This document shows positions 41,755 to 64,000 of a stretch of 64,000 bases of DNA, in pieces. This DNA comes from Gammaproteobacteria bacterium (GTDB lineage Bacteria; Pseudomonadota; Gammaproteobacteria; CAJXQU01), in contig CBDEGZ010000003.1 in assembly GCA_965238175.1 (NCBI GenBank), positions 2,400,001 through 2,464,000 of the forward strand. The letters are read 5' to 3'. Numbering within the stretch: the stretch's first letter is position 1; the number at the start of each line of letters is the position of its first letter. The position numbers and the translations under genes are program-made. The notes below the pieces were generated by a model. It searched no databases, was not told where the DNA came from, and was given only the letters and a program-made list of their open reading frames with translations.

Positions 41755-41945
41755 AAGGTCACTAGGAGCTAATGATAAGCAGCGACAGATTTGCTGAACG
41801 TTGTTCCCAGCCTTCTTCAGCTTCACCGCAATTTATTGCCGTTGCTCATTTCCATAGCGAAGAAGGCTTGATCACCTGCACCGAACAGAGGTGAAATTAC
41901 GATGCAGTTTAATTACTCTCGCCTGATGACATACCCTTGAACAGA

Positions 41946-45211: not shown

Positions 45212-45487
45212 TGACAACAAATAGACTAAAGGCTGATGCTATTCTTCAACTAGATAATGAACGAACTATAATTTAATCCGGGAGCGGAAACAGGCTGGCA
45301 CAAGCACAAGTATGATTACATTGTCGTTCCAAATATTAAAGGCAATCTTCTCCTTGAAACTAGCGATGGTGAAAGTATTGCAATGCTTGAGGCAGGCCAA
45401 GCTTATTATAGACCTGCAGGTATAGAACATAATGTAATCAATGTGAATGATTATTCATTTTCTTTTGTGGAAATAGAGTTGAAATAA
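45211..45487 (+). pseudogene. bauB: BauB-like cupin, frameshifted
   Basis: Not in the ORF track. MTTNRLKADAILQLDNERTII-stop(45274-6); the next frame continues FNPGAETGWHKHKYDYIVVP...GQAYYRPAGIEHNVIN...FVEIELK. Confidence 0.82.
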
Positions 45488-45553
45488 AAAATTAACAAAG
45501 TGTTCGTTCAGACTATATACCAATCAGGTCAAAAAGAACATCAGAGAGGCTAG

Positions 45554-46288: not shown

Positions 46289-46322
46289 CTTTATAATTGG
46301 TATTAAAACAAAGGAGAACCCT

Positions 46323-46565
46323 ATGGCTAAGTCAGAAATTCGCTCCCCATTACCAGGCACCTTTTATCATCGTTCTGCCCCTGATCAACCTCCATTTATG
46401 GAACCAGGTAAACAAGTAATGGTAGGTGACACCCTCGGTTTGATCGAGGTCATGAAATCATTTCATCCTGTCGCTGCTGAGGTCGATGGCGTATTTACGG
46501 CTTATCTCGTCAACAGTGATGAAGCCGTTATGCCAGGACAGGTTTTGCTGGAAATCGAAAGCTAA
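46323..46565 (+). CDS. Stand-alone biotin carboxyl carrier protein
   Basis: IRSPLPGTFY...IEVMKS biotinylation motif. Confidence 0.9.
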   Translation: MAKSEIRSPLPGTFYHRSAPDQPPFMEPGKQVMVGDTLGLIEVMKSFHPVAAEVDGVFTAYLVNSDEAVMPGQVLLEIES

Positions 46566-46583
46566 AAAAGGATAATTTAAAAG

Positions 46584-47972: not shown

Positions 47973-48844
47973 GTGCGAGATATTCTTTTGGTGGTGACGA
48001 ACATATTTTTGTTGAAGTTAGTGAAGAGATGGCACTGGAAGCTTTTTTTAAAGGCTTATCCATGACAAACGCCATTCGCGATGCTGCAATCACAGGTGTC
48101 ACTGAAATCTGTGCGGCGAACGCTTCATTTCAGGTCAAATTCGATCCTGATCTGATCCACCCCGATGAAATGATGGACACAATAAAACGTTTCGAGGAAG
48201 CTGCTGATCAGTCTGATGCCGTGTTAAACACCCGTATCATTGAGATCCCCGTTTATTATCAGGATCCCTGGACTCATGAAACACAAATGAGATTCAGAGA
48301 ACGCCACCAGACACCTGAATCTACCGATATAGAATTCGCCGCTGATGCCAATGGCTACAAAACAGTCGATGATTTTATCGAAGCACATTCAGGCTCGCCC
48401 TGGTTCGTATCAATGGTCGGTTTTGTTGCAGGCCTGCCATTTCTTTATCAAATGGTCGATAGGCCTCGCCAGATCCAGGTACCCAAATATTTGAGACCAC
48501 GTACCGATACACCGAAATTAACGATTGGCTATGGCGGTTGCTTCACTTGTATTTATTCCGTGCGTGGCGCTGGCGGTTATCAAATGTTCGGTATCACACC
48601 CATGCCAATTTATGATCCACAACAAAAGATAAGCTACCTGAAAGATTTTATGGTGTTCTTTAGACCTGGTGATATTGTCAAATGGAAACCTATCGATCGC
48701 AGCACGTACGAACAGATGGTTGTGGATGTCGAAGCAGGTAAATTCCAGCCTCTAATACGTGAAGTTGTATTTTCACTAAAAGACTACAACAAAGATATTG
48801 ATGGAACCAACACAAAACTTAAGGAGGCGCTCTATGCCGATTAA
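47969..48844 (+). CDS. Carboxyltransferase subunit, PxpB/allophanate hydrolase subunit 1-like
   Basis: IEIPVYY, MVGFVAGLP, PRTDTP, GAGGYQMFG, PGDIVK. Confidence 0.82.
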   Translation: MSARYSFGGDEHIFVEVSEEMALEAFFKGLSMTNAIRDAAITGVTEICAANASFQVKFDPDLIHPDEMMDTIKRFEEAADQSDAVLNTRIIEIPVYYQDPWTHETQMRFRERHQTPESTDIEFAADANGYKTVDDFIEAHSGSPWFVSMVGFVAGLPFLYQMVDRPRQIQVPKYLRPRTDTPKLTIGYGGCFTCIYSVRGAGGYQMFGITPMPIYDPQQKISYLKDFMVFFRPGDIVKWKPIDRSTYEQMVVDVEAGKFQPLIREVVFSLKDYNKDIDGTNTKLKEALYAD

Positions 48845-49805
48845 TGTCAACAGTCCAGGACTCGCAACCACAATCCAGGATCTGGGGCGTCCCGGTTATT
48901 ATCATTTGGGGATACCAATGGGGGGGGCTATGGACAGACTGGCAATGCGCGCGGCTAACTTACTGGTAGGGAATAGCGAAGACGCTGCCGGTCTGGAAGT
49001 CGTGTTTATGGGGCCAGAACTGGAATTCACTGAGGAAGCCATCGTCGCTGTCACTGGTGCCGAATTGCCACCTAAGCTTGATGGTGAATCTCTTGAGACA
49101 TGGACTTCATTCAAGATCAAAGCGGGACAAGTTCTGTCTTTTGATTATTTACGCGAAGGTGCACGGGCCTATATTGCAATCTCTGGCGGCATTGCAACAC
49201 CAAAAGCGCTCGGTAACCGCTCAACCTATACTATTGGTGCACTGGGAGGTATTGATGGCCGAGCTATTCAGAAGGATGACACCTTACCCCTTGGTTCACA
49301 AAAAACTGCTATTGAGGGGCAAAACCTGCCTCAACATTTACAGCGCAAACCTGGTAACCCGGCGGAACTACGGGTGCTGCCTGGCCTTTATTGGCATCGC
49401 CTGACTGAAGAAGCACAAGAAACGTTTTTTGATGATAGCTGGAAAGTGGCATCTGAAGCTGATCGCATGGGTTATCGCTTTCAAGGTGGCCAGGCACTGA
49501 GCTTTGTTGAGCGCGAAGCACCGTTTGGAGCAGGCTCTGATCCTTCCAATATCACAGATGCTGGTTATCCTTACGGTTCTATACAAGTGCCCAGTGGTGC
49601 TGAACCAATTGTCTTGCATCGTGATGCGGTCTCGGGTGGCGGCTACTTTATGCTAGGCACTATTATTTCAGCAGACATGGATCTGATCGGTCAACTACAA
49701 CCAAATACCGAAACACGCTTCATCAAGGTCAACATGCAAACGGCAATGGAAGCCAGACGTGAACGCAAGGCAACACTGGGTGAGATCCGCATGGCACTTG
49801 CCTGA
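48834..49805 (+). CDS. Carboxyltransferase subunit, PxpC/allophanate hydrolase subunit 2-like
   Basis: TTIQDLGRPG...GGAMD, ANLLVGN, GARAY, DRMGYR, GSIQVP, GGGY; ATG at 48834 after aaggagg RBS. Confidence 0.85.
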   Translation: MPINVNSPGLATTIQDLGRPGYYHLGIPMGGAMDRLAMRAANLLVGNSEDAAGLEVVFMGPELEFTEEAIVAVTGAELPPKLDGESLETWTSFKIKAGQVLSFDYLREGARAYIAISGGIATPKALGNRSTYTIGALGGIDGRAIQKDDTLPLGSQKTAIEGQNLPQHLQRKPGNPAELRVLPGLYWHRLTEEAQETFFDDSWKVASEADRMGYRFQGGQALSFVEREAPFGAGSDPSNITDAGYPYGSIQVPSGAEPIVLHRDAVSGGGYFMLGTIISADMDLIGQLQPNTETRFIKVNMQTAMEARRERKATLGEIRMALA

Positions 49806-49996
49806 CCACCCTCCAGCATATTGGCATTAATACCAAGTCTTTTGACAACTTCTGAACGATTATAGTGTTGTTCTTTTATCAAACTCTCTGCATCCAGTTT
49901 GAATTTTTTCGAATACTTCTTGCGTACTGCCATTTTATTTCCTCAGTTAAGTAAATTATCCTTAACTAAGTTGTACTAATCATTTAAGCCACTTTA
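49806..49996 (-). mobile_element. IS3-family remnant (5' end and truncated OrfA)
   Basis: MAVRKKYSKKFKLDA...VVKRLGINANML (ATG 49933) resembles IS3 OrfA HTH; cut off at the pxpC-like stop; no OrfB. Confidence 0.7.
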
Positions 49997-50052
49997 AACC
50001 TCTTGCTCGCTACAAGCTGTATTCACATTATTAAAGACACATACGTGCCAGA

Positions 50053-50388
50053 TTATTTTTCTTTCTTCTTTTTTTTCTTCTTTTTCTTTTCTTCTTCAGG
50101 AGCTCTAATCATAGCGCAATGGACTTCTTCTTCACTTAAAGCTCTGACAATTTTACCTGCGACTTGTGGTAGTACTGTCGTACACCTGAATGTTCCATCG
50201 TAGGTAACAATGGTTGTGATCAAGTCATTGTTACTTGTGCTAAATGTACTGGTCGTTATATGTAAAATTCTATCCTGGTACTTTTGTAAAATATCAGCTT
50301 CAGTTAGATCGCTTTCGACCCAACTCGCTGCGCCAAAAGCATTGCAGACCACCATGCTTAAAAAAATGCTATATATTGATTTTTTCAA
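50053..50388 (-). CDS. Small secreted hypothetical protein with poly-Lys tail
   Basis: Signal-peptide-like N-terminus, two Cys in the mature part, C-terminal EEEKKKKKKKKKEK. Confidence 0.55.
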   Translation of the reverse strand: MKKSIYSIFLSMVVCNAFGAASWVESDLTEADILQKYQDRILHITTSTFSTSNNDLITTIVTYDGTFRCTTVLPQVAGKIVRALSEEEVHCAMIRAPEEEKKKKKKKKKEK

Positions 50389-50742
50389 TTTTCTTTAACC
50401 TCGTGTGACAATTACATTTTTAAAACTGCGTGTGAAATGAGACGTATGGATTGAAATATACCTGTGCCTTTTGCACATCCCGTGGGAACCTGTTTTGGCC
50501 AGGATAATACTTGAGCAAATTTTTATGTTCTGTATGTTGTATTCTCTTCGACATTAAAAATTCTTATTGATTTTCCTTTGGCTAATTTTCAGATTATTCC
50601 TGTACCATTTGGTACTACATGACTCACAACAGAATCTACTAGATCATTTACTAACCCAGTATCGGACTTACACCACACACTCTGTTAGACACTTCGATTA
50701 GCTCCTCAAGTTCAGGCCTTGAATAATGTGATGTTATCGACA

Positions 50743-51798
50743 CTACAATTGATTGAAGGATCTATAAAGTTGATTGACTGTAGCAATTGCTTTGTCACTA
50801 GTGTCCCATTCACCATCGCCATCAACTGGAACAATTTTGGTGCTACTATCGCCAAGATCGGTCAGGCTAAGACGTACACTTTTGTCATCATCCGAGTCCG
50901 GGGATTCTAAATGTTTAAACACACCGGACAGACGGATTTTCAATCCCTCATCTTTCTCCTTTTGCGTACCTAAGGTATAGAGACCACGTAAACTATCCGC
51001 TTCGCTGATATTGAGACCGATCTGCTTCAAAGCCCGTGCTGTACTGAACCAGGCTTGCTCAAAACCCTCCAGCAAATGTATAGAAACCTTGCCATTTCCG
51101 GTATCGATTAATTTCACTCTGGTGGTTGCCGAGTCAGAGACACTGGAAACAGGTCCTGATAAATCAGCTGAGATCTGGCTAGAAGTAGCCGTTACTACTG
51201 TGTCCAAACGTTGCGTGTTGTTCAATTCTTCTGTTTTTTGAATGGAGTTGTTGTTCTCCGAAAAGGCCTTGTGGAGTTGTTTGATCGTGTCGACAGCTAC
51301 GTCGCGCGTATCCCAGTTGCCTGCCCCGTCAACAGGAACGATTTTCGTACTATTATCTTCCAAACTAATCAATCTGATACGTACACTCTTTACACCCTCT
51401 GAACCATCCTTACCAAAAGATTCCAATGATTCTAAATGCTTTAGTACTCCTGAGGTTCGTATTACAAAACTTTTATCTTTTTTTTCTTTTGGTTTTTGTT
51501 TCAAAATATAGAACCCACGCTGAGCATTGGCCTCACTAATCTCAAAACCAACCAACTCAACGGCACTGGACGTACTTTGCCAGGCTTGCTCAAAACTCTC
51601 GCGCAAGCGGACAGAAACCTTATCGTTACCAGAATCAACCAAGTGTACATAGCCTCCTGACTGAAGTTCGCCGATACTCCGATCAGATACAAGTGTATAT
51701 GTATTTGGTGTGGAAACCACACGACTACAGCCAGCCATAAAGACAACAATAATCAACAGGTTCGATATAACAATTTGTCTTAGCATAGGAATACTCAT
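50743..51798 (-). CDS. Lipoprotein with two BamC/NlpB-like repeated domains
   Basis: Lipobox MAGC; duplicated unit (L.D.GN.KVS..L.E.FEQAW.ST..A...G..ISEA...RG.Y.L...STKIVPVDG.G.WDT). Confidence 0.65.
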   Translation of the reverse strand: MSIPMLRQIVISNLLIIVVFMAGCSRVVSTPNTYTLVSDRSIGELQSGGYVHLVDSGNDKVSVRLRESFEQAWQSTSSAVELVGFEISEANAQRGFYILKQKPKEKKDKSFVIRTSGVLKHLESLESFGKDGSEGVKSVRIRLISLEDNSTKIVPVDGAGNWDTRDVAVDTIKQLHKAFSENNNSIQKTEELNNTQRLDTVVTATSSQISADLSGPVSSVSDSATTRVKLIDTGNGKVSIHLLEGFEQAWFSTARALKQIGLNISEADSLRGLYTLGTQKEKDEGLKIRLSGVFKHLESPDSDDDKSVRLSLTDLGDSSTKIVPVDGDGEWDTSDKAIATVNQLYRSFNQL

Positions 51799-51977
51799 TT
51801 GCAGATTGAAAATAATTTTAGAAAGAAGAAAATGATCAATCTCTCTAGTCGTTGACTCGCAAGCGATATTTAACCGGCACAGAAACCCTTTCCCTTTATC
51901 TTTTTTGGTTAAATTATTATGTACAGTGGCTCAAGCCTTAATTCTTCCTTTCTTACACGAAACTTAGACTCTGTAAT

Positions 51978-52032
51978 AAAAAAGTCCCTGGTTCACTGAA
52001 TTATGGAGGTTCATTTTTTGTGACCCAGGGAC
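51978..52032 (-). terminator. Terminator-like stem-loop downstream of porin
   Basis: mRNA-sense GUCCCUGGGUCAC...GUGAACCAGGGAC-UUUUUU. Confidence 0.65.
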
Positions 52033-52134
52033 AAAACAATGGATTTGTTACTATCTCCCAACCTTAAGGTTGGAGGGTAATTAATAGCATCATCCCACAA
52101 GCGTTTTACTACATATAGAAATCCCTTTCTTAAT

Positions 52135-53403
52135 CTAGAAGAACAAAATTATACCAACACTGAAGACATCGTTATCGATATCACCACCAGCCTGGTTTTC
52201 TGCTTCAAGATGTGAATATTCACCTGTTAGCATTACACCTGATGCAAGCGTATGATAAATCCCGCCAGTGATCTTGGTTTTCTCTTCAAGAACGGCAGTA
52301 CCTGCATCTACAGCGTTATCATCAAGATTGTTTACACCATAGTTGATACCATATTTGGTGTTACCTGCTGCATACGTTGCCTGCAGCAAATAACCATCAC
52401 TATCGCGTTCCTCACCTGTTGGATCAACGGCATCAATAAAGTAACCAGTATGACCTAAGCCCTGAGCATGATGGTATGTTCCTGTCAATGTCAGGTTAGA
52501 GAAACTATACTGACCTGTGAGATCAATACCATACGCCGTGTAATCGGATGTTAATGCACCAGCGCTAGCCTCTACTGATTGGGCGAGAAAAGTTGAGGAA
52601 ATAAACCCTCCGTTGAAATTAAATCTTAACCTGCCGTGTGCGCCTGGCAGCTCAGAACCAGTCTCAGCACCTGCGAATGTACCGCTGTTAAAGGAAAAAC
52701 TTGATAGGTTTAAAGGTTGGAAAAGACCAATTTGAGCGACCCACTGATCACTGGTTGGTATTGTCCAGGTAAGCTGGGTAATACGATCCAGGAAGATGTA
52801 ACCCGTACCAGCCGCACCTAACTGAGTGTTCACTGGGTTATTGACCAAAAAGTTACCACCCACTGAAGAAACAGACATATCCTGGAAAGTTGAGTCATAA
52901 GCAAAAACGCCCCAAGCACGACCGACCAATATCTGTCCTATGCTTTCGTTACCCAAAGTCATCCAGATACGAAAACCTGATCCATCATCACCGACATTGA
53001 ATGCTTCATTAGTATCTAACCCACGATCAAAAGTAGAGAAGACACCTATGTCATAACCACCAGCAGTTGTTGACAGACCGAATTCCAGTATCGTTGGCAA
53101 ATAACCATTAGTGATTGCGTTTGGATCCTGATCACCACCACACAAAAATGCCCCTACAACCAAGGCACCATTATCATCGCAAGTATTATATATATAACTT
53201 GCATTGAAATTCCCATGTACTGAGAACGTCCAGCCTTCATTTTCAATTTCAAAAGCATTGGCTGATAAAGAACCGATCGCACATAAACTTGCTACCGATA
53301 ACGTACTGATTTTTTTCCGCATTATTTTATTAATCATTTTTCCACTCCGTAATTTTGTTTTGTTTAATGTTTGTCTTTCCAGACTATTCGTTATTACTGT
53401 CAT
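52135..53403 (-). CDS. Outer-membrane porin (alternative start 53337)
   Basis: Signal peptide ending ANA-FE, amphipathic beta strands, C-terminal Phe (SVGIILFF). Confidence 0.85.
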   Translation of the reverse strand: MTVITNSLERQTLNKTKLRSGKMINKIMRKKISTLSVASLCAIGSLSANAFEIENEGWTFSVHGNFNASYIYNTCDDNGALVVGAFLCGGDQDPNAITNGYLPTILEFGLSTTAGGYDIGVFSTFDRGLDTNEAFNVGDDGSGFRIWMTLGNESIGQILVGRAWGVFAYDSTFQDMSVSSVGGNFLVNNPVNTQLGAAGTGYIFLDRITQLTWTIPTSDQWVAQIGLFQPLNLSSFSFNSGTFAGAETGSELPGAHGRLRFNFNGGFISSTFLAQSVEASAGALTSDYTAYGIDLTGQYSFSNLTLTGTYHHAQGLGHTGYFIDAVDPTGEERDSDGYLLQATYAAGNTKYGINYGVNNLDDNAVDAGTAVLEEKTKITGGIYHTLASGVMLTGEYSHLEAENQAGGDIDNDVFSVGIILFF

Positions 53404-53673
53404 TTATTTCCCCCATAATTTCACTTAATCTAAACAGCTGCTATTTTTCTATCCAGTGCATCTTTAAGAATGTTCTATCTCTGAGACGCACCTCACCCCT
53501 GACACCTACATATCGCCATTTTTTCGAAGCCATTCTTCGAGAGTTAATTTTTTGAATTTCATCTACTGATTAATAGACGCTTATTCAATTTACTCTGGGT
53601 AAAATAACCTAGTAGCTTCGCCTCCTGGATTTTCAAAAATCCTTGTCTTACCGTATTTATACAAAAAATAAAG

Positions 53674-54081
53674 CTATCCGTACTTCTCCATTAAACCAGC
53701 GATGCGTTTTAAAAATATGGCATGCTCGCAGGCCTCTTCTGACGAATAAGAACCATCGAGTATTTCGACAGGTTCTCCTCGTACGCCGGAGGAAATACCT
53801 ATTCTGTAATCCTCAAACATGCGTACACAAACGCTCACGTATTTACCGGCCATTGGATGTCGGCGTAATTTATCAAGTAACGTTCTCAGATCCTGGCTAT
53901 GTTCTATTGCTGGCTGACCATTCTTAGGTGGTGTACCCACAGGGTTAGCTTTGTGTTCAGCAATCAGGCGACGACGTGATTCATCCTCAAACAACAGCGG
54001 CATTACATAGCGACGCGTCATGTGATCGTCAGCCCCTTCATAACCTTCGTTTGCTTGCACACCTTTTTGTTTATCTAACAT
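53674..54081 (-). CDS. N,N-dimethylformamidase small subunit-like protein
   Basis: LIAEHKANPVG...HSQDL..LLDKLRR.P..GKY...EHAIFLKRI; near the large subunit. Confidence 0.75.
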   Translation of the reverse strand: MLDKQKGVQANEGYEGADDHMTRRYVMPLLFEDESRRRLIAEHKANPVGTPPKNGQPAIEHSQDLRTLLDKLRRHPMAGKYVSVCVRMFEDYRIGISSGVRGEPVEILDGSYSSEEACEHAIFLKRIAGLMEKYG

Positions 54082-54129
54082 CTTGTATTCCTCTTAATTT
54101 CAAGTAATAAGTGCTATGACCTTTATTCA

Positions 54130-54498
54130 TCAATGGTTTCGACAAGGTGTAAATTCACCGCGCTCATCTTTAATGCGCTGCGCTTCCTCTTGCGCCAGTT
54201 CTGGTGAGTCGTAAACTTTGTCCTCAAACAATATGATAGGTTTTGCACGATCTGCATTGAGTTGTCCCACACACCACTGTTTATCCGGTTTAATACAAAC
54301 GACGACATAAGCACCTGAGATCGCTCCATACTTATTGTTGTTCAGCTTGAACAGGCATTCAGCTACATCGATAACCTTTTCCTCATCAAGCGACTCCATC
54401 ACCAATTTTTCTAAATCGTTAGGCGGAATCGAACTTGCACCAAGTTCAGATTTGCCCGGTGGTGGATCCAACATGTCGGGGTGTTGATTTATTGTCAT
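54130..54498 (-). CDS. Hypothetical protein, partial paralog of the DMFase small subunit
   Basis: YVVVCIKPDKQWCVGQLNADRAKPIILFEDKVYDSPELAQ aligns with the C-terminal half of 53674-54081. Confidence 0.55.
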   Translation of the reverse strand: MTINQHPDMLDPPPGKSELGASSIPPNDLEKLVMESLDEEKVIDVAECLFKLNNNKYGAISGAYVVVCIKPDKQWCVGQLNADRAKPIILFEDKVYDSPELAQEEAQRIKDERGEFTPCRNH

Positions 54499-54524
54499 AT
54501 CACTATCCTCATGTGGTTTTACGT

Positions 54525-56888
54525 TTAAGGTAAATCACCTTCTTTCAAGAAGCCTTTGATCGCATTTTCAGTCAGCCTGGAGACGTTGTTGTTGTAGTTG
54601 TTGTGCGAAAGGCTGCCGCACCATGACAATGATCCTGGTGCGAAGGTTGCTCCACCATTTGGTGTTTTGTAATAGACCATGTCTGCACGCACCATTGGAT
54701 TTTCCGTACCGCTGCCGTGATAACCGCGGACAGAGAAATGAATTTCTTCGTTAACCTGCAGCATTAGATTGGTGTGCCCTTCTGAATGCGCTAATAGATA
54801 TGCGTCGTGCGGTGTACCGAATTCCAGGTCGTAGCGATCAAGTTCCAGACCGGCGGCACCGCCACCAACTAAGCCGAAGTCACCAATTTTTTCGCCATTA
54901 CCAATACCTTCCATAATCCAGGCAGTTTCTGGCAACTCACTGTCCTTATCACGCACATAATAAGAAGACACATCGAAACCATAAGCTGTGAAAGTCAGGC
55001 CACAAAGCTTACTTGGAATACGTCCTCGTGCACGCCACATGCCACCGTACTTACCATCAAAGGCGTTATTGTATTCACCAGGATTAGCTGTCCAGGCACG
55101 GGTACCTGCTTCGCCTTTACGTACTTCAATAATGTTGGAATTATCTGGATGATATTGACTGATCCAATAGAAACCATTCGCACCCAGATAGATCCAGCGT
55201 CCACCTTCCTGCTGATATCTCTCATAAGCTGAGAACATGTTTTCTGAGGTATATTCAGGGTGACTACCCGTCAATACCGTTCGATATTTATTCAGTAAAG
55301 CAACGCCTTCACGATCCAAATCTTCATCAGTATGAACGTCATAATCGAAGCCTTTTTCATCCAGCCAGTCAATTAAGTGCAGGTCACCATTAAGTTGCCA
55401 AAGCGATGGAGACAACCAGTGACGATACTTGGGACGCATGTTCAGAATTGGACGCAAACGTGATGAATAGCTCACACCACTCCCATCGGAATGTAATGAA
55501 TAGGTAGATAAACCATATTCCCTATGCTCATTCAGATACAAATCTGAAGCAGTCATAACCGGAACCTTACCAGCGAGCAATTCAGCAACAACACAGTTAG
55601 TCGCCAGGTTATCGTTGGAATACGCCATATAGGAATTAGTCGGTAAGATAAACGCTAGTTTTGAGGTAGTTGTACCGCGTGGGGGACGTATAACAAAGGG
55701 AATATAATCTTCTGTTTCTGGCGAATCCACACCACCGATCCTCAGGCGTGCAGCATATACACCACTTTTCAGATTGTCAGGAACTGTCAGTTCAAAGTCC
55801 ACATCCCAGCGAGCATCATCGATATCGTCATCGTGGAAATGAATAGCACCGTATTCTTCTGGTTTATGATGATAAACAATCTCGTCACCAGTCCAATTAA
55901 AACCGGTCATACCTCGACATGGCATATTTACAATGTAACCGTGGAGTCGAGAAGTCGACAGATCAAGAATATGTGTACTTGCAATATTCTTAGTGATGTT
56001 GGCATGAAAATCCCAAGCTCCGATCACATCATTGCGCACATCAGGATGACAATATTGAAAACCGCGTGCCAACGCTTCGATTTCTGCTTTAGAGAGGGCA
56101 CGACGAGATAATCTAGGTCGATCGATCTTACCGTTATAAGTAGCACCGCGAGTTTGTTCTGGCAACTCAATCGCTTCAGGAGCTTCCTTAAAGTGTGCTC
56201 CAGAAATACTACGTCCTGATCGCTCAGTCCAGGTACTAGCAGCCATCAGAAATGGGGCATCATTTATTCCTGGCTTCATACTGTTAATCGATTCAACAGT
56301 TGCTGTAGTTTCTTCAGCAGGGTTCAGAATACCTTGTCCCAGACCACCATTGGTTGGAGTCACAACAGGCTCTTGATAAAGAGTGACTTTGCCTGTTCGT
56401 GCATCGTAGCTAACTGCCGCAAGATACCAGACCTTTCGTAATAATTTCTTATCACTGGAAATTTTCATTACCTGCCCAGAACCATTACCAATTCTTGCTT
56501 CCAGGCAACCATTTTTATCGATAAATAATCCGTAACCACTTTCCGAATGATCAACCCATTTGGTTAGAAGCCCCTGACGTCCTTTCTCAGGTGTGGTTGG
56601 AAAGATATAGCACTGCAATGTAAAACTTTCTACATTCAGGCGTTCATCCTGTGGAACGATAATATAAGAACCACCATGAATTTTTTGATTACGTCCTGGA
56701 TAACTTTTATTGCAGGATGCACTAATTTCCTCTTCTTTATATCCAGGACCTTCCGGGTTGGTATCACCATGGATCAAACGTACGAGTTGGGTATCGTAGA
56801 CCTCGTCTTCCTCGGAATTAATATAGAACTTAATATTATCCCCGGGACATATAGAATATTTATCGCTATAACCAGTAATTCTTAACAT
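54525..56888 (-). CDS. N,N-dimethylformamidase large subunit-like amidohydrolase
   Basis: ITGYSDK, LVRLIHGDTNPEGPG, LamG-like domain, HFHDDD, YMAYSN, GLSTY, GSHPEY, LGANGFYW, GLELDR. Confidence 0.88.
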   Translation of the reverse strand: MLRITGYSDKYSICPGDNIKFYINSEEDEVYDTQLVRLIHGDTNPEGPGYKEEEISASCNKSYPGRNQKIHGGSYIIVPQDERLNVESFTLQCYIFPTTPEKGRQGLLTKWVDHSESGYGLFIDKNGCLEARIGNGSGQVMKISSDKKLLRKVWYLAAVSYDARTGKVTLYQEPVVTPTNGGLGQGILNPAEETTATVESINSMKPGINDAPFLMAASTWTERSGRSISGAHFKEAPEAIELPEQTRGATYNGKIDRPRLSRRALSKAEIEALARGFQYCHPDVRNDVIGAWDFHANITKNIASTHILDLSTSRLHGYIVNMPCRGMTGFNWTGDEIVYHHKPEEYGAIHFHDDDIDDARWDVDFELTVPDNLKSGVYAARLRIGGVDSPETEDYIPFVIRPPRGTTTSKLAFILPTNSYMAYSNDNLATNCVVAELLAGKVPVMTASDLYLNEHREYGLSTYSLHSDGSGVSYSSRLRPILNMRPKYRHWLSPSLWQLNGDLHLIDWLDEKGFDYDVHTDEDLDREGVALLNKYRTVLTGSHPEYTSENMFSAYERYQQEGGRWIYLGANGFYWISQYHPDNSNIIEVRKGEAGTRAWTANPGEYNNAFDGKYGGMWRARGRIPSKLCGLTFTAYGFDVSSYYVRDKDSELPETAWIMEGIGNGEKIGDFGLVGGGAAGLELDRYDLEFGTPHDAYLLAHSEGHTNLMLQVNEEIHFSVRGYHGSGTENPMVRADMVYYKTPNGGATFAPGSLSWCGSLSHNNYNNNVSRLTENAIKGFLKEGDLP

Positions 56889-56936
56889 GATATTTCCTCA
56901 AACTTTTATTAAATAGAAATGACAGCTTCTCAATTT

Positions 56937-58880
56937 TTAATTGTAAGCAACTCTTTCAATTTCCTTTTCCGGCGTGGTCGACATCCGCATTTTATTAGCT
57001 AGAAACCAGATCATAAGTACACCGAGTGCCCACCAAATAATCTGCCATGCCCAGAGAGATGGCATTCGGAAAACCCAAGCGTCATAACCTGCATTTGGTT
57101 CTCCGAATAAAACATTGCCTAATAGTGATCCCGGACCAATAGCAAAAAACATCCACACCATCACCATCACACCTGCCACAGGTTTCGACCAACGATCACA
57201 AACCTCTGAAGCTGTGTATTCATGGAAAAAATCGTGAAAGGAATCTCGCCACTTACGATCATCGATATCCTCGCGTGAAGAAGCAGAAACAATCAGACAG
57301 ATAACAAGGTTGAAAAACATACCCCAGGCAGCGGAATGAATAGTCCATGGCCATACACCCCATGGCAGCGAACCACCTGTGAGTTTCTGACCTAACGGCT
57401 CAGTCAAAACAACTGCAATCAAACCGACGATTAAACCTGCTGTTGCCGCACTCCGGGTGATAAATGAGAACCAGGTTACTGCTAACAGTGAAGGCCACAG
57501 TTGGAATGCACAGGCAATGGCTAAGCCGCCTAACAGCATGGTTGCTTCCATCGAAAAAGAAGCCAGTAGCATTGCCGCAAGGAACACCAAACCTGTGCAC
57601 AGACGTGCAACCAACATCTGTTTCTTATGGTCAGCTTCGGGCTCCAGAAAACGAAGATAAATATCACGAGCCAAGATGCTGCCCGTGGTTGACATAAAGG
57701 CAGAACCGGTAGCTTGTAATGCTGCAATAGCACACACAGCCAGGAAACCAATTAGCCAGGGCAAGCTTCCACCGATCAATTTGATATAGTGCGCAACCAA
57801 TTCATTTTGTTGATGCTCTGATAAGACAGGCAATAAATTAGCAACTGCAAAACCAGCTTCGTTAACATCGGCGTTGGCACCTAACAAATGAGCACTGACA
57901 CCCTGAAAGGTTGCAAAAACAAACATCAGAATGCCAACAACACATGCAGCACCCCAAATCTGATGAATCGCAAAACCCCGTGGTGAACGGCTGGCAAAAC
58001 CTAACATGGAAAATGAAGGTGACGCCTGAATACCCATAACTGACATCATGAAGGTCAGGATCATAATAGAGGTCCAGGGACCTCCCGTTGGTGTTTCAAC
58101 ACCTAATCCGCTTGTCCATTGAATAACCCCTGGCACTGCAAAATAACCGGGGAAATTACCACCACCTAGACCTTTAGTTTCAGCCGAATGACTGGCTAGG
58201 TTTTGCGCGATATTAGCCAAACCAGCATTCAATGAGTCGAAGCCGCCTACAAGATCTAAAGCGTACGTTCCCAACACCACCATGCCCAGTATAAAGAGAG
58301 CACATTGCACAACCGCAACTTTAGCAACAGCTTGCATACCGCCTATAACACAGTAGAGCAACACAAAACCTGAGAGACCCCACATAGCAACTGTGCGAGA
58401 CACTTCTCCATTAGTTAGCTCGCTGATCAGGAAGCCGGAAGCACCAAAGAGAATGGCAACAAAAGGAATACCAAATAGCAGGGCAATGAAGACAGAGATA
58501 AGACGTAATGTATTACCCTTAAAATAATCTGCCAACATCTCACCAGATGTCACATAGCCGAAGCGTTGACCTAACATCCACTGCCGTTTAAGTAAGACAA
58601 CACCACTCAAAGCAACAGCCACTGCGTAAAAAGACGCGTTGGCGAACTGAAAACCATCTCGAAAAACTAGTCCAGGATGTCCTATAAAAGTCCATCCTGC
58701 AAAAGAAACCCCAGTAGCGGCAAGCGCAAAAACCCATGGCGACAAACTTCTTCCAGCGAGAAAATAATCGCTAGCAGTGTCCACACGTCGGCACGCACGC
58801 ACGCCCCAGAAGAAGCAATACGCCCAGTAAAGCATCAAAAAAACTAGCAGCCAGGCGGTATTATCAGTCATGTTATTCAA
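56937..58880 (-). CDS. Sodium:solute symporter family transporter
   Basis: DYFLAGRSL, SFAGWTF.GHPG, GGM.AVA, many TM segments. Confidence 0.9.
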   Translation of the reverse strand: MNNMTDNTAWLLVFLMLYWAYCFFWGVRACRRVDTASDYFLAGRSLSPWVFALAATGVSFAGWTFIGHPGLVFRDGFQFANASFYAVAVALSGVVLLKRQWMLGQRFGYVTSGEMLADYFKGNTLRLISVFIALLFGIPFVAILFGASGFLISELTNGEVSRTVAMWGLSGFVLLYCVIGGMQAVAKVAVVQCALFILGMVVLGTYALDLVGGFDSLNAGLANIAQNLASHSAETKGLGGGNFPGYFAVPGVIQWTSGLGVETPTGGPWTSIMILTFMMSVMGIQASPSFSMLGFASRSPRGFAIHQIWGAACVVGILMFVFATFQGVSAHLLGANADVNEAGFAVANLLPVLSEHQQNELVAHYIKLIGGSLPWLIGFLAVCAIAALQATGSAFMSTTGSILARDIYLRFLEPEADHKKQMLVARLCTGLVFLAAMLLASFSMEATMLLGGLAIACAFQLWPSLLAVTWFSFITRSAATAGLIVGLIAVVLTEPLGQKLTGGSLPWGVWPWTIHSAAWGMFFNLVICLIVSASSREDIDDRKWRDSFHDFFHEYTASEVCDRWSKPVAGVMVMVWMFFAIGPGSLLGNVLFGEPNAGYDAWVFRMPSLWAWQIIWWALGVLMIWFLANKMRMSTTPEKEIERVAYN

Positions 58881-58904
58881 TACTCCTTAATACATTTGTC
58901 AGGG

Positions 58905-60926
58905 TTACGTATTAGCCCGGTCACTCTCAGAACTACCGCCATTCCCATCTTTGTAATCCCCAAGAATATTTGTAATATTGCCAATTTCGTTTGGCGACAT
59001 ACCAATTTCATTGAGCAGGTTGTCAACGAATGGCATTTGTGCGCGATAACGCAGAGCTGAATTTACAATGTTGTCAGATAGACTACTTTGAGATCCTCCC
59101 AAGTCACTATTCACAGGACCTAAGCCTCCACCATCACCGTTTACACTTGCGCTGCTACCATTGAAACCAGGCATACCATTAACTTCATAAATCTTGATAC
59201 CGTCGATGTTTTCCATCGGTCTAACCGCTTCGCGGATAATCGAATCAAGATTCTTAGCCAACTGCATACGCAGATCACTTTGACGACTTTTATCGCTTCG
59301 AGCATTTTCAGCCTCATTCAGCATCAACCTGCCGGCAGCATCCACTTCGTAACGCAGCTTGCTCGCCAAAGAACTATGCTTCTCTGCCTGTTCACGTTCC
59401 TGAGATGCTTCTTTCTCGGCTTTGGCAAGAGTTGTAATTTGAATTGCTTCGCTTTCACCTTCTTGTGTGGCATGGATCAGTTTCAGTTTCTTATGTCGCT
59501 CAGCAACCTCGACTTCCCTTGCTGATGAAACCTGCTCCTCGGCAACGACTGTTTGTGCACGCATCTGCTCTTTAACTTCGTTTGCTTTAAGCACCTGCAC
59601 AGATTTTTCTGTTACGGCCAACTCACGATCATGTTCCTCAATCTCAAGTTGTTTACGTTTTTCAATTTCACGTGTTTTGGTTTTTTCTTCGTTTTCAATA
59701 CGCGTGGTTTCAATAGCACGCTGCTGCTCGATTTTTGATTTCTTAACGCTTTCTTCCGCTTTCAATTGAGCCTGCTCAGCTTCACGGTAACGTTCAGACT
59801 CCTCCTTAACCACATCAGATTTTTGCTGAGCGCGACGCTTAGCAACTTCTTCTTCCTGTGCTAATCGAGCAAACTCATTATCCTTCTCAATTTCCAGCGA
59901 TCTGATTTCACTTTCGAGATTTTTCTGTTTAATTTCAATCTCAGTTTGCCTTTCAATTTCGTTGCGCAGTTTTTTTCGTTCTTCTATCTGCAACGTCAAC
60001 TTGTGTTCACGTAACGAGCGCTCAACTTCAATCGTGTCCTGTTGAGATATACGTGCTTTTTCAACTTCCTCAACGGCATTGATTTTGGCTTCTTCTGCAA
60101 CACGTTCCTGTTCCGCACGCTCAATTGCTATTTCTGTTTGCTCTTTGGCACGTTGCATGGCAATTGCACGTTCTTGCATAAGACGTGCAAACTCTCTTTC
60201 CTTATCAATTTCCAGCGTGCGCTGTTCAGTTTCGAGATTTTTAGATCGAATTTTAATCGCTGTATCCTGCTCGATATCATTACGTTTTTTCTTACGGGAT
60301 TCGATTTGCTCAGTCAGTTGAGTTAGACCTTCAGCATCGAATACATTGGAAGGATTGAAGACTTCCAGACCGGCCTGATCTAATCCAGTCAGGGAAACAG
60401 CTTCTAACTCAAGCCCCGTTTCGCTGAGTGAATCTTTAACCAATGCCTTAACAGCCTTGATATATTCGCCACGCTTTTCCTGTATTTCTTCCATGGTCAT
60501 TTGTGCAGCGACAACACCTAACGCATCAATGAAACGACCCTGAACTAACTCACGCAAGCTCTCTGGCTCCAATGTCCGCTTACCCAGAGAACCCGCTGCT
60601 ACAGATACAGCTTCTTTTGTGGGAGTGACGCGAACATAAAATTCGGCCACAATTTCCACCCGCATACGGTTCTTTGTGATAAAGGACTTATCTCCACCAC
60701 GTCGTACCTCAATACGCAAAGTCCTCATACCAACTGTTGTGATGTTATGAATGATGGGTAATACAAATGCACCGCCACTCAGAACAATTTTTTCACCTCC
60801 AAGACCGGTTCTGACAAACGAAACTTCTTTGGACGAACGGCGATAAAGCCAATGTAATAGATAAACCGCGATAGCAATGGTAAGTGCTACCAGAATGATT
60901 ACTGCAATAATGTCTGCACCAGTCAT
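58905..60926 (-). CDS. Flotillin (SPFH/band-7, YqiK-like)
   Basis: N-terminal TM, FVRTGLGG..V...GG.FVLPI.H, SPFH domain, long E/A-rich coiled coil, C-terminal PMENIDGIKI...ALRYRAQ.P. Confidence 0.92.
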   Translation of the reverse strand: MTGADIIAVIILVALTIAIAVYLLHWLYRRSSKEVSFVRTGLGGEKIVLSGGAFVLPIIHNITTVGMRTLRIEVRRGGDKSFITKNRMRVEIVAEFYVRVTPTKEAVSVAAGSLGKRTLEPESLRELVQGRFIDALGVVAAQMTMEEIQEKRGEYIKAVKALVKDSLSETGLELEAVSLTGLDQAGLEVFNPSNVFDAEGLTQLTEQIESRKKKRNDIEQDTAIKIRSKNLETEQRTLEIDKEREFARLMQERAIAMQRAKEQTEIAIERAEQERVAEEAKINAVEEVEKARISQQDTIEVERSLREHKLTLQIEERKKLRNEIERQTEIEIKQKNLESEIRSLEIEKDNEFARLAQEEEVAKRRAQQKSDVVKEESERYREAEQAQLKAEESVKKSKIEQQRAIETTRIENEEKTKTREIEKRKQLEIEEHDRELAVTEKSVQVLKANEVKEQMRAQTVVAEEQVSSAREVEVAERHKKLKLIHATQEGESEAIQITTLAKAEKEASQEREQAEKHSSLASKLRYEVDAAGRLMLNEAENARSDKSRQSDLRMQLAKNLDSIIREAVRPMENIDGIKIYEVNGMPGFNGSSASVNGDGGGLGPVNSDLGGSQSSLSDNIVNSALRYRAQMPFVDNLLNEIGMSPNEIGNITNILGDYKDGNGGSSESDRANT

Positions 60927-60965
60927 AATTTCTTACTCCTCAATAATATAGTTCTGATTATTCTG

Positions 60966-61679
60966 TTACTCAGCAACAGGATGATTTATGGCATTTGTGT
61001 CACTAATAGCAGCCTTATAAATTACGAAACCAAAGATGATCTTGTTTAAAAAATCAGCTAGGTTATAAATAATGTTGAGACTGTTAGTATCAACCCCTCC
61101 ACCCAGGTTATTGATAAAGTATCCGAGTGGATAAATTGCCCAACCGATAGTGACGATCAACCGTAATCCGTTAAATGCCATATGCGTTGCCTCGTTACCG
61201 CTTTCAGTATTAACGCGTCCAGCCTCACCCATATAGAGCTCACCGAGAATGTACAGCCAACCGACCACACCGATAATGAAACCCAAAGTTGCACTCATAT
61301 AACCTGCCGCACCCAGGAACTCACCAATAACCATAACCAATGATCCAATTAGCAAACGCCAAAATAAGGCTGGCGACACCTCTGTCACAGCCGCTAGCAC
61401 CACGTAAAACAGCACCACCTGCATTGAATGCGACAGTACCCAATCCACATAGCGCAAAATAATCGGCGCAGTACCCGTATCCACCCACATGCTTTTTGTG
61501 TAGTGATAAAAAATAGCGGAAACCAGCATCACAACACCGAGCAATGTCATCGTCGTGTGCCATCGGCTGTCCACCCTGTTTCTTTCCAGCAGGAAAAAAA
61601 TGGTGGCTCCGATCATGGCCATTGACAATAGCCAGAATGATCCACCTACTACGTCTGTTGGTAATAACATCTTGTTCAT
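60966..61679 (-). CDS. Proteorhodopsin-like microbial opsin, flotillin-associated type, D-S-L motif
   Basis: Seven hydrophobic segments; SFWLLSMAM..AT.FF..ER, RYVDW, GWAIYPLGY, NIIYNLADFLNKIIFG (Schiff-base Lys213 retained). Confidence 0.92.
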   Translation of the reverse strand: MNKMLLPTDVVGGSFWLLSMAMIGATIFFLLERNRVDSRWHTTMTLLGVVMLVSAIFYHYTKSMWVDTGTAPIILRYVDWVLSHSMQVVLFYVVLAAVTEVSPALFWRLLIGSLVMVIGEFLGAAGYMSATLGFIIGVVGWLYILGELYMGEAGRVNTESGNEATHMAFNGLRLIVTIGWAIYPLGYFINNLGGGVDTNSLNIIYNLADFLNKIIFGFVIYKAAISDTNAINHPVAE

Positions 61680-61750
61680 GAAAGCCCTCTACTATCTATT
61701 TTATTTATTAAAACAATGACATACATGCTGTCGTCATGCCTTTCACATCT

Positions 61751-63175
61751 TTATATCTGCGTCCGTATGTGCGGTGAACGTGCATACAAGGCCACCATCG
61801 GCAGAATCAGCAAACCAAACACGAATTGCTGCCCTTCAAAACTCAAACCGATACCCACAAGAAACGACGACAGTACTTGTAGAACAAGCACACCAATGAC
61901 CGTGAATCCATAGCCGCCAATACCACCAAGCAAGGAAGTCCCCCCTACAACAACCGCAGCCAGCGTCATGAACAAATACTGATCGCCCACACCGATAAAA
62001 GCACCGCCACTCCAACCCAGCAGCAAAGCGCCAGTCAAAGCTGAAATCAAACCGCTGATGCAATACACACCCACCCAGTAGGAGTGCTCTGAAATTGACA
62101 AGCGTGCAGCTGCTATTCGACCGCCACCCAAGGCGTAGAGATTTCTTCCCCAGCTTGAATTACGTAATCCAAAAATCAGAATGATGGCCGCCAGGATCCA
62201 GACAACAACAACCGGCGGAATACTAATACCGGCGATGCTGCCATTGACAGAGGCAATATTAGTTAACCAATTAGGAACAACACCGAACACGGTGCCACCG
62301 GAGCCAAGAGTAGTGATAGTTTGAACACCACCAGAGACAGCAAAACCAACCCCCAGTGTCAGGATGAGGGCCTGCCCCTGTAGTTTGAAACTCAATAGAC
62401 CGTTGACAAGCCCAATGGCGGCACCAACCAGCAGCACCGCAAGGATGGCAAGCCAGGGTGGGATGCCCATGTTGAGCAGGAACATCAAACCAACGTTCGA
62501 ACCACCGATAACAAAGGGAATGGATAGATCCAAGCCGCCCAGCAAAGCAACCAGTGTTTGCCCGATACAAGCCAGCCCCAAAAACGAAGCAAACAGCAGC
62601 ATTGATTTGAGATTCAACGTAGAAAGAAATCCCTCTACAACCAAGATACCAATAATAAAAAGCCCAATAAGAACGGTGAGACCCAAGTAAGCACTTTTAT
62701 TATTTTTAACGTTTTTATTAATAACAATGCCAATAACAATCAGCAGGACAAATACAAGTGCCGCGAGGATATTAGACGGTTGAAAGAAGTCCTCGACAGC
62801 AGCACCAACGGCAAAGAAAAGGGCGATCCCGAGCAAAATACCAATCAAGGCACCCTTGTATCTGGAGATAAGTAAACTAAAATAACTTTGTTCGTGCTCA
62901 TCCTCATCACCAGGTTTTACTTCTGCTGCTGCAACTGGCTCAACTGCTTCAGCCTCTGTTGTGCTGATGGCTATTGCATCATCACGATATATCCAGCGCA
63001 CTGAAAAGTGGTGCCAACCCCATAAAATGAGACCGAAGATTGCAACCGTGTAGAAAACAATGTGTTGTGTAGGCATATCATCAAGCGATCCCAGTACAGC
63101 ACTGACCCCAGCGACTAGCATTGCGATAACTAAACCCAGTCCCTTGTAAAACGAAAAGGCGCCTCTGGTGCTCAT
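61751..63175 (-). CDS. Sugar-type ABC transporter permease (RbsC-like) with N-terminal TM extension
   Basis: GQTLVALLGGLDLS, LILTLG, GRNLYALGG...AARLS, AAVVVGGTSLLGG.G. Confidence 0.85.
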   Translation of the reverse strand: MSTRGAFSFYKGLGLVIAMLVAGVSAVLGSLDDMPTQHIVFYTVAIFGLILWGWHHFSVRWIYRDDAIAISTTEAEAVEPVAAAEVKPGDEDEHEQSYFSLLISRYKGALIGILLGIALFFAVGAAVEDFFQPSNILAALVFVLLIVIGIVINKNVKNNKSAYLGLTVLIGLFIIGILVVEGFLSTLNLKSMLLFASFLGLACIGQTLVALLGGLDLSIPFVIGGSNVGLMFLLNMGIPPWLAILAVLLVGAAIGLVNGLLSFKLQGQALILTLGVGFAVSGGVQTITTLGSGGTVFGVVPNWLTNIASVNGSIAGISIPPVVVVWILAAIILIFGLRNSSWGRNLYALGGGRIAAARLSISEHSYWVGVYCISGLISALTGALLLGWSGGAFIGVGDQYLFMTLAAVVVGGTSLLGGIGGYGFTVIGVLVLQVLSSFLVGIGLSFEGQQFVFGLLILPMVALYARSPHIRTQI

Positions 63176-63211
63176 TTTATTTGCTCTTATCCTCCTCTAT
63201 ACGCATAATGA

Positions 63212-64000
63212 TTACCTTTCCCACGGACTAATTGCATCATCGCGTTTTTCGCCGACGATGTAGGTGTTGATTATGTGCATAACGTTTGGTGCTGTAATAA
63301 TCGACATACCGATAACCGCCAGGATTTTCCACAGCGGAACACCGATTGCGTAAAACAGACCGCTCCAGGCTAACGTGGCTAAAGCAGCGATATGCCAGTA
63401 ACGCCAAAAACTACGGAAACTGGATTCGCCCATCGCCATACGAAGGAAGATATGCAACATAAGAATAATGAAACCGCAGTAAGCCAACTCTGAAAATATC
63501 GCCATATCTGAGACGCCCACACCAACTCTGGCAGGGTCGGAATACTCGATGGCTGGTAGTTCCATAGGTGTCACACCCGTGCGAATAACAGGTTCGGCAT
63601 AACCCGCCCCTTGAGCGATCACGTCAGCAGGTATACCGCTACCGCTGGCGAAGAAATACACAACAATGACGGCTAGCACCGCTAAGGCACCAATGAACAG
63701 GTTATTAATATTGTGCAGTTTGGTTTGTACCAGCGGCGCCGTGATGGCGAACAACAGCGCGCCGACCAGAATAATGGCATATATTTCACCGGACAGTTGA
63801 CCAGCCAAATAGCCCTTGTCCGCATCTGAGAAGAACATGGCGCCAACAGCAATGACTGCAACCGCACCACCAAATAGAATCATTGCAACGCGTTTTGTGC
63901 GAATTGCCACCTGTGGCAGCATCACCAGAACGATCAAGGAAGTCAGTAGTACAGTACCCAACACCCCCATCAGCACATAGGTAGATTGAGCCACCGATTC
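63212..64000 (-). CDS. Polytopic membrane protein, 3' part (starts beyond window); likely C-terminal extension of another ABC permease
   Basis: Frame is open to the window end; multiple TM helices; co-oriented directly upstream of the permease. Confidence 0.55.
   Translation of the reverse strand, partial: ESVAQSTYVLMGVLGTVLLTSLIVLVMLPQVAIRTKRVAMILFGGAVAVIAVGAMFFSDADKGYLAGQLSGEIYAIILVGALLFAITAPLVQTKLHNINNLFIGALAVLAVIVVYFFASGSGIPADVIAQGAGYAEPVIRTGVTPMELPAIEYSDPARVGVGVSDMAIFSELAYCGFIILMLHIFLRMAMGESSFRSFWRYWHIAALATLAWSGLFYAIGVPLWKILAVIGMSIITAPNVMHIINTYIVGEKRDDAISPWER

Follow-up and report, generated by a model that had tools for sequence, protein, structure and literature searches.

What does a microbial rhodopsin do when it keeps its Schiff-base lysine, has the retinal pocket filled by other side chains, and is the only rhodopsin encoded by its genome? 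The question is raised by a 64,000-nucleotide stretch of a gammaproteobacterial genome (assembly GCA_965238175.1, contig CBDEGZ010000003.1, positions 2,400,001 to 2,464,000), hereafter the window, in whose coordinates all positions below are given, and in particular by one gene in it:

60966-61679, minus strand: gene for a flotillin-associated rhodopsin or FArhodopsin (FAR), 237 residues from an ATG start, identified by its open reading frame (ORF) and residue numbering, the Pfam family PF01036, the match to the solved structure 9r21, an AlphaFold2 model searched with Foldseek, and a phylogenetic tree.

Comparisons of sequence and predicted structure identify the product of this gene as a known kind of protein, a flotillin-associated rhodopsin. 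Indeed, an opsin with its lysine kept behind a plugged pocket had been described as early as 2023, and structural work decided the matter in 2025 (Haro-Moreno et al., 2023, mSystems, PMC10308929; Kovalev et al., 2025, bioRxiv 10.1101/2025.04.29.651185). The new point is its occurrence in a pump-less, non-streamlined host with a horizontally acquired FAR island.

The protein aligns to positions 6-222 of the 224 positions of the type-1 rhodopsin profile PF01036 with an expect value (E) of 1.1e-31 (110.6 bits against a cut-off of 24.6), a match at which homology, and not chance, is the appropriate explanation; no NCBIfam model matches it at E <= 0.01. The AlphaFold2 model (mean predicted local distance difference test score, pLDDT, of 87.7; predicted template-modelling score, pTM, of 0.84) has eight helical elements, namely seven long helices of membrane length and, at residues 152-159, a short one. 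In this model helix A begins with residue 7, and HMMER pairs residue 8 with residue 27 of the precursor-length proteorhodopsins 4kly and 8cqc; the leader is hence missing, as had been proposed in a preliminary description of the window made from the letters and their translations. The ATG used here is the one from which homologs align at Met1, and it is preceded by an AGAGGG motif. In the public gene call the same protein (P0065) has only 174 residues, which are 100% identical to the window protein and cover 73% of it; its start seems to have been placed at Met64, 63 codons too far downstream, and helices A and B would then be lacking.

The numbered translation yields S54, F57, R76, D79, S83, H84, S85, Q87, L90, M116, E120, G137, Y183, P184, D209 and K213, reproducing all the residue positions claimed in the preliminary description. 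Helix C reads RYVDWVLSHSMQVVLF and helix D reads VMVIGEFLG. Thus, the motif of the protein is D79/S83/L90 (DSL), its pocket blockers are H84 and E120, and D209 and K213 are kept. The manual alignment to proteorhodopsin (PR) from which the description had started also holds: HMMER pairs D79, S83, H84, S85, Q87 and L90 with D, T, V, P, Q and the proton donor E of Med12 BPR (4jq6), F57 with its helix-B histidine, E120 with its conserved glycine, and D209 and K213 with its D and K. Like the pumps Med12 BPR, GPR (7b03) and PsPR (9r22), the window protein has the rhodopsin fold with R76, D79, D209 and K213, and its Q87 is the blue-tuning residue. However, the DTE motif with its carboxylic donor, the helix-B histidine and the open pocket that characterize a pump are replaced: the donor E by L90, His75 by F57 and P103 by S85, with H84 and E120 blocking the pocket and no signal peptide being present. 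Pumping by the window FAR would not be expected.

Among solved structures the best match is PDB 9r21, entitled "flotillin-associated rhodopsin" (E 1.7e-130), which aligns without gaps over residues 1-230 with 194 of the 230 residues identical (~84%, counted on the midline of the printed alignment). The second match, 9r23, is the same protein with V84 and G120, given in its Foldseek title as the H84V/E120G double mutant of PsFAR. In a Foldseek search with the AlphaFold2 model these two are again the best PDB matches, with a template-modelling score (TM) of 0.94 and 82% identity over 236 columns to 9r21, whereas proteorhodopsins give query-normalised TM values of 0.78-0.89 and identities of 40-48% (48% to the pump PsPR, 9r22). 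An identity of ~84% to PsFAR as against at most 48% to any PR chain places the protein with the FArhodopsins. In a maximum-likelihood tree 32 FARs split from two PR paralogs with support of 100/100 and the window protein lies within the FAR clade; the test is a limited one, the only PRs included being these two, both from FAR-bearing genomes. Within the clade the window FAR is the sister of a protein from an uncultured gammaproteobacterial metagenome-assembled genome (MAG; locus L003, 92% identity, support 95/81), and the pair lies next to the Pseudothioglobus/Njordibacter group.

The FArhodopsin clade was named by Haro-Moreno et al. (2023; PMC10308929), who described it as a separate branch of the PR family with the lysine kept, bulky residues in the pocket, a 23-residue N-terminal deletion, and an invariable tandem with a flotillin gene in a flexible island of ~26 kb. 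The motifs given there are DTT in Pelagibacterales, DTL in Pseudothioglobus and DNI in HIMB59; AlphaFold predictions had the conserved residues clashing with retinal, and a cloned DTT FArhodopsin showed neither retinal binding nor light-driven transport. The window protein shares this lysine, the deletion and the branch. Its bulky residue at position 84 combined with E120 (the alternative in the clade being W137) is established by the ungapped alignment to PsFAR, and its version of the D-T/N-(T/L/I) motif lacking the carboxylic donor is D79-S83-L90. Judged by the residues involved, DSL is a conservative variant of the published DTL and DTM motifs, and it recurs together with H84 and E120 in 6 of the 119 other listed homologs (clusters at 90% identity: P0001, P0002, P0009, P0011, P0059 and P0062). 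The flotillin gene likewise lies directly downstream on the same strand:

58905-60926, minus strand: flotillin gene, 673 residues, with an N-terminal membrane helix, an SPFH/Band_7 domain (PF01145, 6.9e-15), a long coiled region and a Flot C-terminal domain (PF15975, 1.5e-29).
60927-60965, minus strand: 39 nucleotides separating the FAR gene from the flotillin gene, in which a Shine-Dalgarno-like GAGGAG motif precedes the flotillin ATG and no terminator-like site occurs.

The preliminary description had characterized the FArhodopsins correctly, but it treated the gene as a departure from them, when it is in fact a plain member of the clade.

This placement allows the pocket to be read against an experimentally characterized ortholog. 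Wild-type PsFAR, from Pseudothioglobus, stayed colourless despite a supply of all-trans retinal and the presence of K213 (Kovalev et al., 2025; PDB 9r21 and 9r23). Its cryo-electron microscopy structure at 2.5 Å has H84 in the channel for the retinal polyene chain, where it leaves no room for that chain in any isomer, and E120 in the β-ionone site, while K213 is hydrogen-bonded to S54, D79 and D209; the remaining cavities are small, fragmented and water-filled, and no ligand is mentioned. Single mutants did not recover binding; the H84V/E120G double mutant binds retinal and absorbs at 498 nm, yet this pigment shows no pumping and passes very slowly through its photocycle, consistent with the missing proton donor. 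The protein folds and forms pentamers, in which Y59 points into the axis of a central opening of ~10 Å.

The residues named in that study are identical in the window FAR with three exceptions. S54, F57, R76, D79, H84, S85, Q87, M116, E120, G137, Y183, P184, D209, L211 and K213 are shared, as are the length class, the lack of a signal peptide, the flotillin gene directly downstream, and the presence in the cluster of genes for a hybrid kinase and a LuxR regulator. The exceptions are T83 and M90, which are S83 and L90 here (DTM becoming DSL), and Y59, which narrows the central pore of the PsFAR pentamer and is H59 here. As the numbering of the two proteins coincides, H84 and E120 stay in the pocket, settling the alignment check which the preliminary description had itself set. 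Its proposal of a non-pumping variant whose pocket may exclude retinal accordingly agrees with what was published for an ortholog of ~84% identity with the same H84, E120, D79, D209, K213, S54 and F57; its further idea of a bound ligand or metal finds no support (see below).

We consider it highly probable that the window FAR is a PR-derived seven-helix protein that no longer binds retinal and acts independently of light as a partner of the flotillin, in the service of the genes of the island. Given the same residues as in PsFAR, the H84 side chain would occupy the retinal polyene channel, E120 would occupy the β-ionone site, and S54, D79 and D209 would engage K213; L90 and F57 stand in place of the proton donor and the helix-B histidine, respectively. 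With the pocket plugged, the lysine engaged, and both the donor and the helix-B histidine gone, the protein is expected neither to absorb visible light nor to pump protons. Other opsins known to have the rhodopsin fold without a chromophore are Rh-noK and the haloarchaeal retinal-less opsins (discussed in Haro-Moreno et al., 2023). However, these have lost the lysine, whereas here it is kept and the pocket is filled instead; moreover, Rh-noK occurs in tandem with a functional pump and the window FAR with a flotillin.

The conservation of the pocket bears on a different reading, namely that of the preliminary description, which had suggested that a polar ligand or metal is bound through His84, Glu120, Asp79 and Lys213; the protein might then act as a ligand-gated element or chemoreceptor and not as a passive part of a structure. 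The former Schiff-base region does contain a cluster of four ionisable or polar residues, and among the 120 nearest homologs of the window FAR, to which all these counts refer, K213 is kept in 119, D79 in 118 and E120 in 102 even though retinal is unbound (the others having Q in 10, G in 6, and N and K in one each at position 120). The island furthermore carries a hybrid histidine kinase and a LuxR-type regulator, and Haro-Moreno et al. (2023; PMC10308929) mention a possible sensing of other stimuli. Position 84 behaves differently: it is H in 61 homologs, F in 27, R in 20, Q in 6, I in 3, and M, T and W in one each. A site that tolerates His, Phe, Arg, Gln and Trp is suggestive of a plug rather than a coordinating side chain, and such a range fits space filling better than binding, while the near-invariance of D79, D209 and K213 fits the published internal salt-bridge network. 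No transducer gene adjoins FAR, and in the 2.5-Å structure of the ortholog only water occupies the small, fragmented cavities, K213 is hydrogen-bonded, and no ligand is reported. Hence, we regard a ligand or metal site as improbable, if still conceivable in the H84 subclade, and favour a light-independent flotillin partner with a bulky filler of varied chemistry at position 84.

Loss of the cofactor, the proton donor and the helix-B histidine might also be expected of a decaying proteorhodopsin relic which is carried along with the island and has no function of its own, and the truncated public gene call of 174 residues (P0065) could be seen in the same light. The substitution pattern speaks otherwise. 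We compared 15 pairs of FAR genes for the ratio of nonsynonymous to synonymous substitution rates (dN/dS); synonymous divergence (dS) was saturated in 12 of them, leaving ratios for L003 (0.032 at a dS of 1.23) and, at a near-saturated dS of 2.5-2.9, for L014 (0.038) and L017 (0.036). An alignment of 34 diverse FARs contains 49 invariant columns. The FAR gene is functional and under strong constraint, and is not decaying. Besides the dN/dS of ~0.03, its full-length open frame aligns to homologs from residue 1, relatives are found in 392 stretches of the species-genome collection, the synteny with flotillin is kept across two proteobacterial classes, and the ortholog PsFAR folds and forms pentamers (Kovalev et al., 2025). 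A relic is therefore scarcely credible in view of this conservation.

The host genome provides the context in which this protein has to work. The assembly comprises 3,352,323 bases in three contigs, one of them of 3.33 Mb, and is 97.7% complete. The FAR itself is the single match to PF01036 in it; the same search recovers both rhodopsin copies in the control genomes of Pseudothioglobus (G001) and Njordibacter (G005). Profile searches of the host genome detected neither a Brp/Blh dioxygenase (blh) nor a lycopene cyclase, both of which were found in the control G005, where their genes adjoin the proteorhodopsin. No heliorhodopsin was found in the host genome either, in a search without a positive control (the family matched in no control genome). 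The host thus differs from the published description, in which FArhodopsins of marine bacteria are restricted to three streamlined taxa and always stand beside a PR (Haro-Moreno et al., 2023; PMC10308929): it is larger, flagellated and PR-less, its 3.35 Mb without a PR paralog contrasting with the 1.7 Mb and two rhodopsins of G001. PR paralogy in a streamlined genome is treated here as a described trait of the first examples and not as a defining one.

A census of 24 other FAR-bearing genomes with the PF01036 profile indicates that this host is not alone. Seventeen of them have the FAR only, and the seven with two rhodopsins are Pseudothioglobus G001, Njordibacter G005, a Beijerinckiaceae MAG (G059) and four small alphaproteobacterial single-cell genomes. 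When only the 16 genomes of at least 2.6 Mb are considered, 14 are FAR-only, 6 of these being chromosome-level by their titles. The genomes were chosen, not drawn at random; they come without completeness figures, several are drafts, and one of the FAR-only cases is a 0.9-Mb single-cell assembly. FAR relatives moreover occur in MAGs labelled Arenicellales, Poriferihabitaceae, Rhizobiaceae, Rhodobiaceae, Hyphomicrobiales, Beijerinckiaceae, Chromatiales and Njordibacter. The FAR-only genomes and this wider taxonomic range contradict the 2023 statements that marine FARs are limited to three streamlined taxa and that the pump is always present. The parts of the FArhodopsin literature covered here, with the PsFAR study (since published in Structure, 2025) in its preprint version, do not report PR-less FAR genomes.

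These observations touch on what the earlier authors had hypothesized, namely that FARs complement the proton pump in dim light (PMC10308929). In the present host the FAR cannot act by assisting a proteorhodopsin, because its genome has none, and the hypothesis is weakened more generally by most of the tested FAR genomes being FAR-only. A related proposal from the same paper has the protein still taking up retinal or some other chromophore when flotillin and suitable lipids surround it in the native membrane, and then either sensing dim light or tuning PR in a hetero-oligomer. The conservation of K213 with its counter-ions D79 and D209 would suit this, and in PsFAR the scaffold is still able to accommodate retinal, as the double mutant demonstrates. 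Against it stand the absence of polyene room in any isomer next to H84 in the structure paper, a host genome devoid of PR, blh and lycopene cyclase, and the 17 of 24 other genomes, or 14 of 16 when only those of at least 2.6 Mb are counted, that are FAR-only (with the above-noted drafts and single-cell assembly among the 17). Accordingly, we hold a native chromophore to be very unlikely.

If the FAR serves the flotillin and not light capture, then the genes around the pair become the natural place to look for its role. The following features of the window surround the two genes:

41870-64000, no strand assigned: the part lying in the window of an island of ~35.2 kb, which runs on for another 13 kb beyond the window; same-genus genomes lack it, and its guanine-plus-cytosine content (G+C) exceeds that of its flanks.
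45554-49805, plus strand: genes for a PxpA-like (LamB_YcsF) protein, biotin carboxylase, and CT_C_D and CT_A_B carboxyltransferase proteins, the carboxylase module of FAR clusters.
53674-54498, minus strand: two small ORFs of 122 residues (54130-54498) and 135 residues (53674-54081), without a family match.
54525-56888, minus strand: gene for an amidase like the large subunit of N,N-dimethylformamidase, 787 residues (PF20254 DMFA2_C, 1.4e-95).
56937-58880, minus strand: gene of the sodium:solute symporter family, 647 residues (PF00474, 4.5e-26).
61751-63175, minus strand: gene for an ATP-binding cassette (ABC) transporter permease, 474 residues, directly upstream of FAR with a 71-nucleotide spacer (PF02653 BPD_transp_2, 2.4e-22; akin to ribose/arabinose-type permeases).
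63212-64000, minus strand: 3' part of the gene for a 732-residue membrane protein that crosses the window end, its frame being open in the genome up to G000:C3:2465410 (positions 1-1410 of L002, the sequence beyond the window).

From the 732-residue permease down to the 135-residue ORF the spacers measure 24-71 nucleotides. Continuing upstream of that permease on the minus strand, beyond the window, are genes for a periplasmic binding protein and a double ABC ATPase; a hybrid histidine kinase gene lies divergently upstream of these, and past the kinase come a LuxR-type response regulator on the minus strand and then a second ABC importer. The plus-strand PxpA and carboxylase genes are preceded by genes for alanine dehydrogenase, a class-III aminotransferase and an HTH-cupin regulator. 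The 732-residue protein consists of an N-terminal ABC permease and a ~400-residue membrane extension of extra helices that belongs to no family; Pfam gives no match for the C-terminal 260 residues of the permease ORF at the window end. The 474-residue permease in turn has an N-terminal extension of ~160 residues. Searches of Pfam at E <= 5 returned nothing usable for the C-terminal half of the 732-residue permease or for the 122-, 135- and 422-residue ORFs, and the 122- and 135-residue ORFs have no NCBIfam match. Dimethylformamidases possess a small second subunit of about the size of these two ORFs.

The gene set corresponds to that listed for FAR clusters by Haro-Moreno et al. (2023; PMC10308929), who describe the flexible island as bearing an "inner membrane translocator", a sodium symporter, N,N-dimethylformamidase, PxpA and a biotin-dependent carboxylase; N,N-dimethylformamidase is named there as part of the FAR cluster and the carboxylase module is described for the Pelagibacterales and HIMB59 clusters. 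To see how far the arrangement extends, 25 island proteins were compared by local tblastn (query coverage >=40%, E <= 1e-10) with 80 related loci reaching at most 6 kb to each side. Flotillin directly follows FAR in 79 of them, across Alpha- and Gammaproteobacteria, and the exception (L021) ends ~0.8 kb past FAR. Relatives of the 474-residue permease are present in 65 of the 80 loci, those of the 732-residue permease and of the symporter in 60 each, those of the 135-residue ORF in 56 and those of the 122-residue ORF in 7; upstream of FAR, PxpA relatives occur in 38 and biotin carboxylase relatives in 40. The arrangement in the window is closest to that of L003 and of L026 (Njordibacter). With these it shares the two ABC permease genes before FAR, where the Pseudothioglobus-type loci (L004-L009, L013 and L016) have a binding-protein gene instead.

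FAR and flotillin are likely to be co-translated from one transcript, with FAR acting in the membrane, independently of light, as a partner within a flotillin microdomain or as a structural element of it. Such a microdomain would serve the ABC importer, the sodium:solute symporter, the formamidase-like amidase and the carboxylase/5-oxoprolinase-like module, under two-component regulation, and the importers and symporter of the neighbouring genes would probably owe their organisation or stability to the pair. The substrate of the island is the weakest step: there is roughly an even chance that it is a small molecule containing nitrogen, on which the formamidase-like amidase and the carboxylase/PxpA module act. 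Of some interest for a membrane partnership is the N-terminal membrane helix of the flotillin, which hardly varies among 24 sequences whose overall identity to the window flotillin is 55-83%; within residues 1-40 the near-invariant ones are G3, A4, D5, I7, A8, I10, I11, L12, L15, I17, A18, V21, Y22, L23, H25, W26, L27, Y28 and R30. This is as would be expected of a helix packing on a membrane partner, and makes it a candidate contact surface. A predicted complex of FAR with flotillin residues 1-200 scored 0.00 in two runs, for which there were no controls.

Scans of positions 49500-64000 gave 20 promoter-like sites (28.4 in shuffled sequences) and 16 terminator-like sites (12.1 in shuffles), neither count being above the background, and the listed terminator-like sites all lie inside ORFs; the operon structure is consequently drawn from the short spacers only. 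Among five public sequencing runs matched to positions 58000-63200 there is no RNA run; one of the five has all the sampled words and two have small shares of them.

Several considerations weigh against a light-independent flotillin partner. The substitutions T83S, M90L and Y59H set the protein apart from PsFAR, and serine is smaller than threonine next to H84. PsFAR was assayed in E. coli and in detergent, without flotillin, and the preprint reports "no obvious evidence" of its adaptation for flotillin binding (10.1101/2025.04.29.651185); a partner or lipid may matter, as raised by Haro-Moreno et al. (2023; PMC10308929). The partnership itself is suggested by gene order only. The absence of PR and blh comes from profile searches of one assembly, the cell could take up retinal from outside, and a lone squalene/phytoene synthase gene is present in the host genome, albeit among unrelated genes and not in a carotenoid cluster.

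A search of six other same-genus species genomes (all 93-99% complete) revealed no FAR. When the DNA of the window and its continuation L002 is compared with five same-genus genomes, the identity is 63-86% up to ~41868 and resumes from position 13026 of L002; between these points, across 44001-64000 of the window, there are only short matches of conserved domains. The 35.2-kb island has a G+C of 0.440, as against 0.39 in its flanks and 0.404 in the chromosome. The island is foreign to the host lineage. In the tree, FARs from Rhizobiaceae, Hyphomicrobiales and Rhodobiaceae MAGs nest among gammaproteobacterial ones, and this intermixing of alpha- and gammaproteobacterial proteins points to transfer of the module. 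ARAGORN finds no tRNA in the window and therefore no tRNA integration site for the island.

Taken together, the balance of the evidence tips somewhat towards the FAR-flotillin pair being a light-independent mobile membrane module that travels with a transporter and amide-catabolism island through Alpha- and Gammaproteobacteria, and is common in genomes of ordinary size without PR or retinal synthesis. If this were true, the idea of pump support in dim light, put forward for the FArhodopsins of streamlined plankton, would not be general, and a bacterial flotillin would have acquired, in the opsin fold, a partner that does without a cofactor. The question of FArhodopsin function would then shift from light harvesting to flotillin microdomains and the accompanying transport and amidase genes, for which PR-less hosts suggest themselves as the cleanest background. 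What the present genomic setting adds is modest: a nearly complete 3.35-Mb genome with a whole FAR island, no pump rhodopsin and no retinal pathway.

Some further observations concern the island borders and the rest of the window. At the left border (41136-41868), a 193-residue ORF matches only positions 1-170 of the 384-position AMP-binding profile, perhaps as a truncated gene for an acyl-CoA synthetase. A stretch of 107 bp without coding sequence (41762-41868) is 93% identical to the same-genus genome G014, far above the 63-86% of the surrounding core, and has no Rfam match; at gathering thresholds Rfam has no match anywhere in the window and L002 (84 kb). Away from the island, the plus-strand ORF at 20566-27945 encodes 2459 residues in a stretch of low G+C (0.35), with TPR repeats, four GT41 glycosyltransferase stretches, a methyltransferase and GT2 domains. 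A gene for a TylF-type O-methyltransferase comes next, and flagellin and flgK genes adjoin the ORF; the region looks like a flagellin-glycosylation locus. The two small contigs of the host assembly, C1 and C2, measure 10,967 and 8,481 bases; the G+C of C1 is 0.558 against 0.404 for the chromosome, and this contig may be foreign DNA, a mobile element or contamination.

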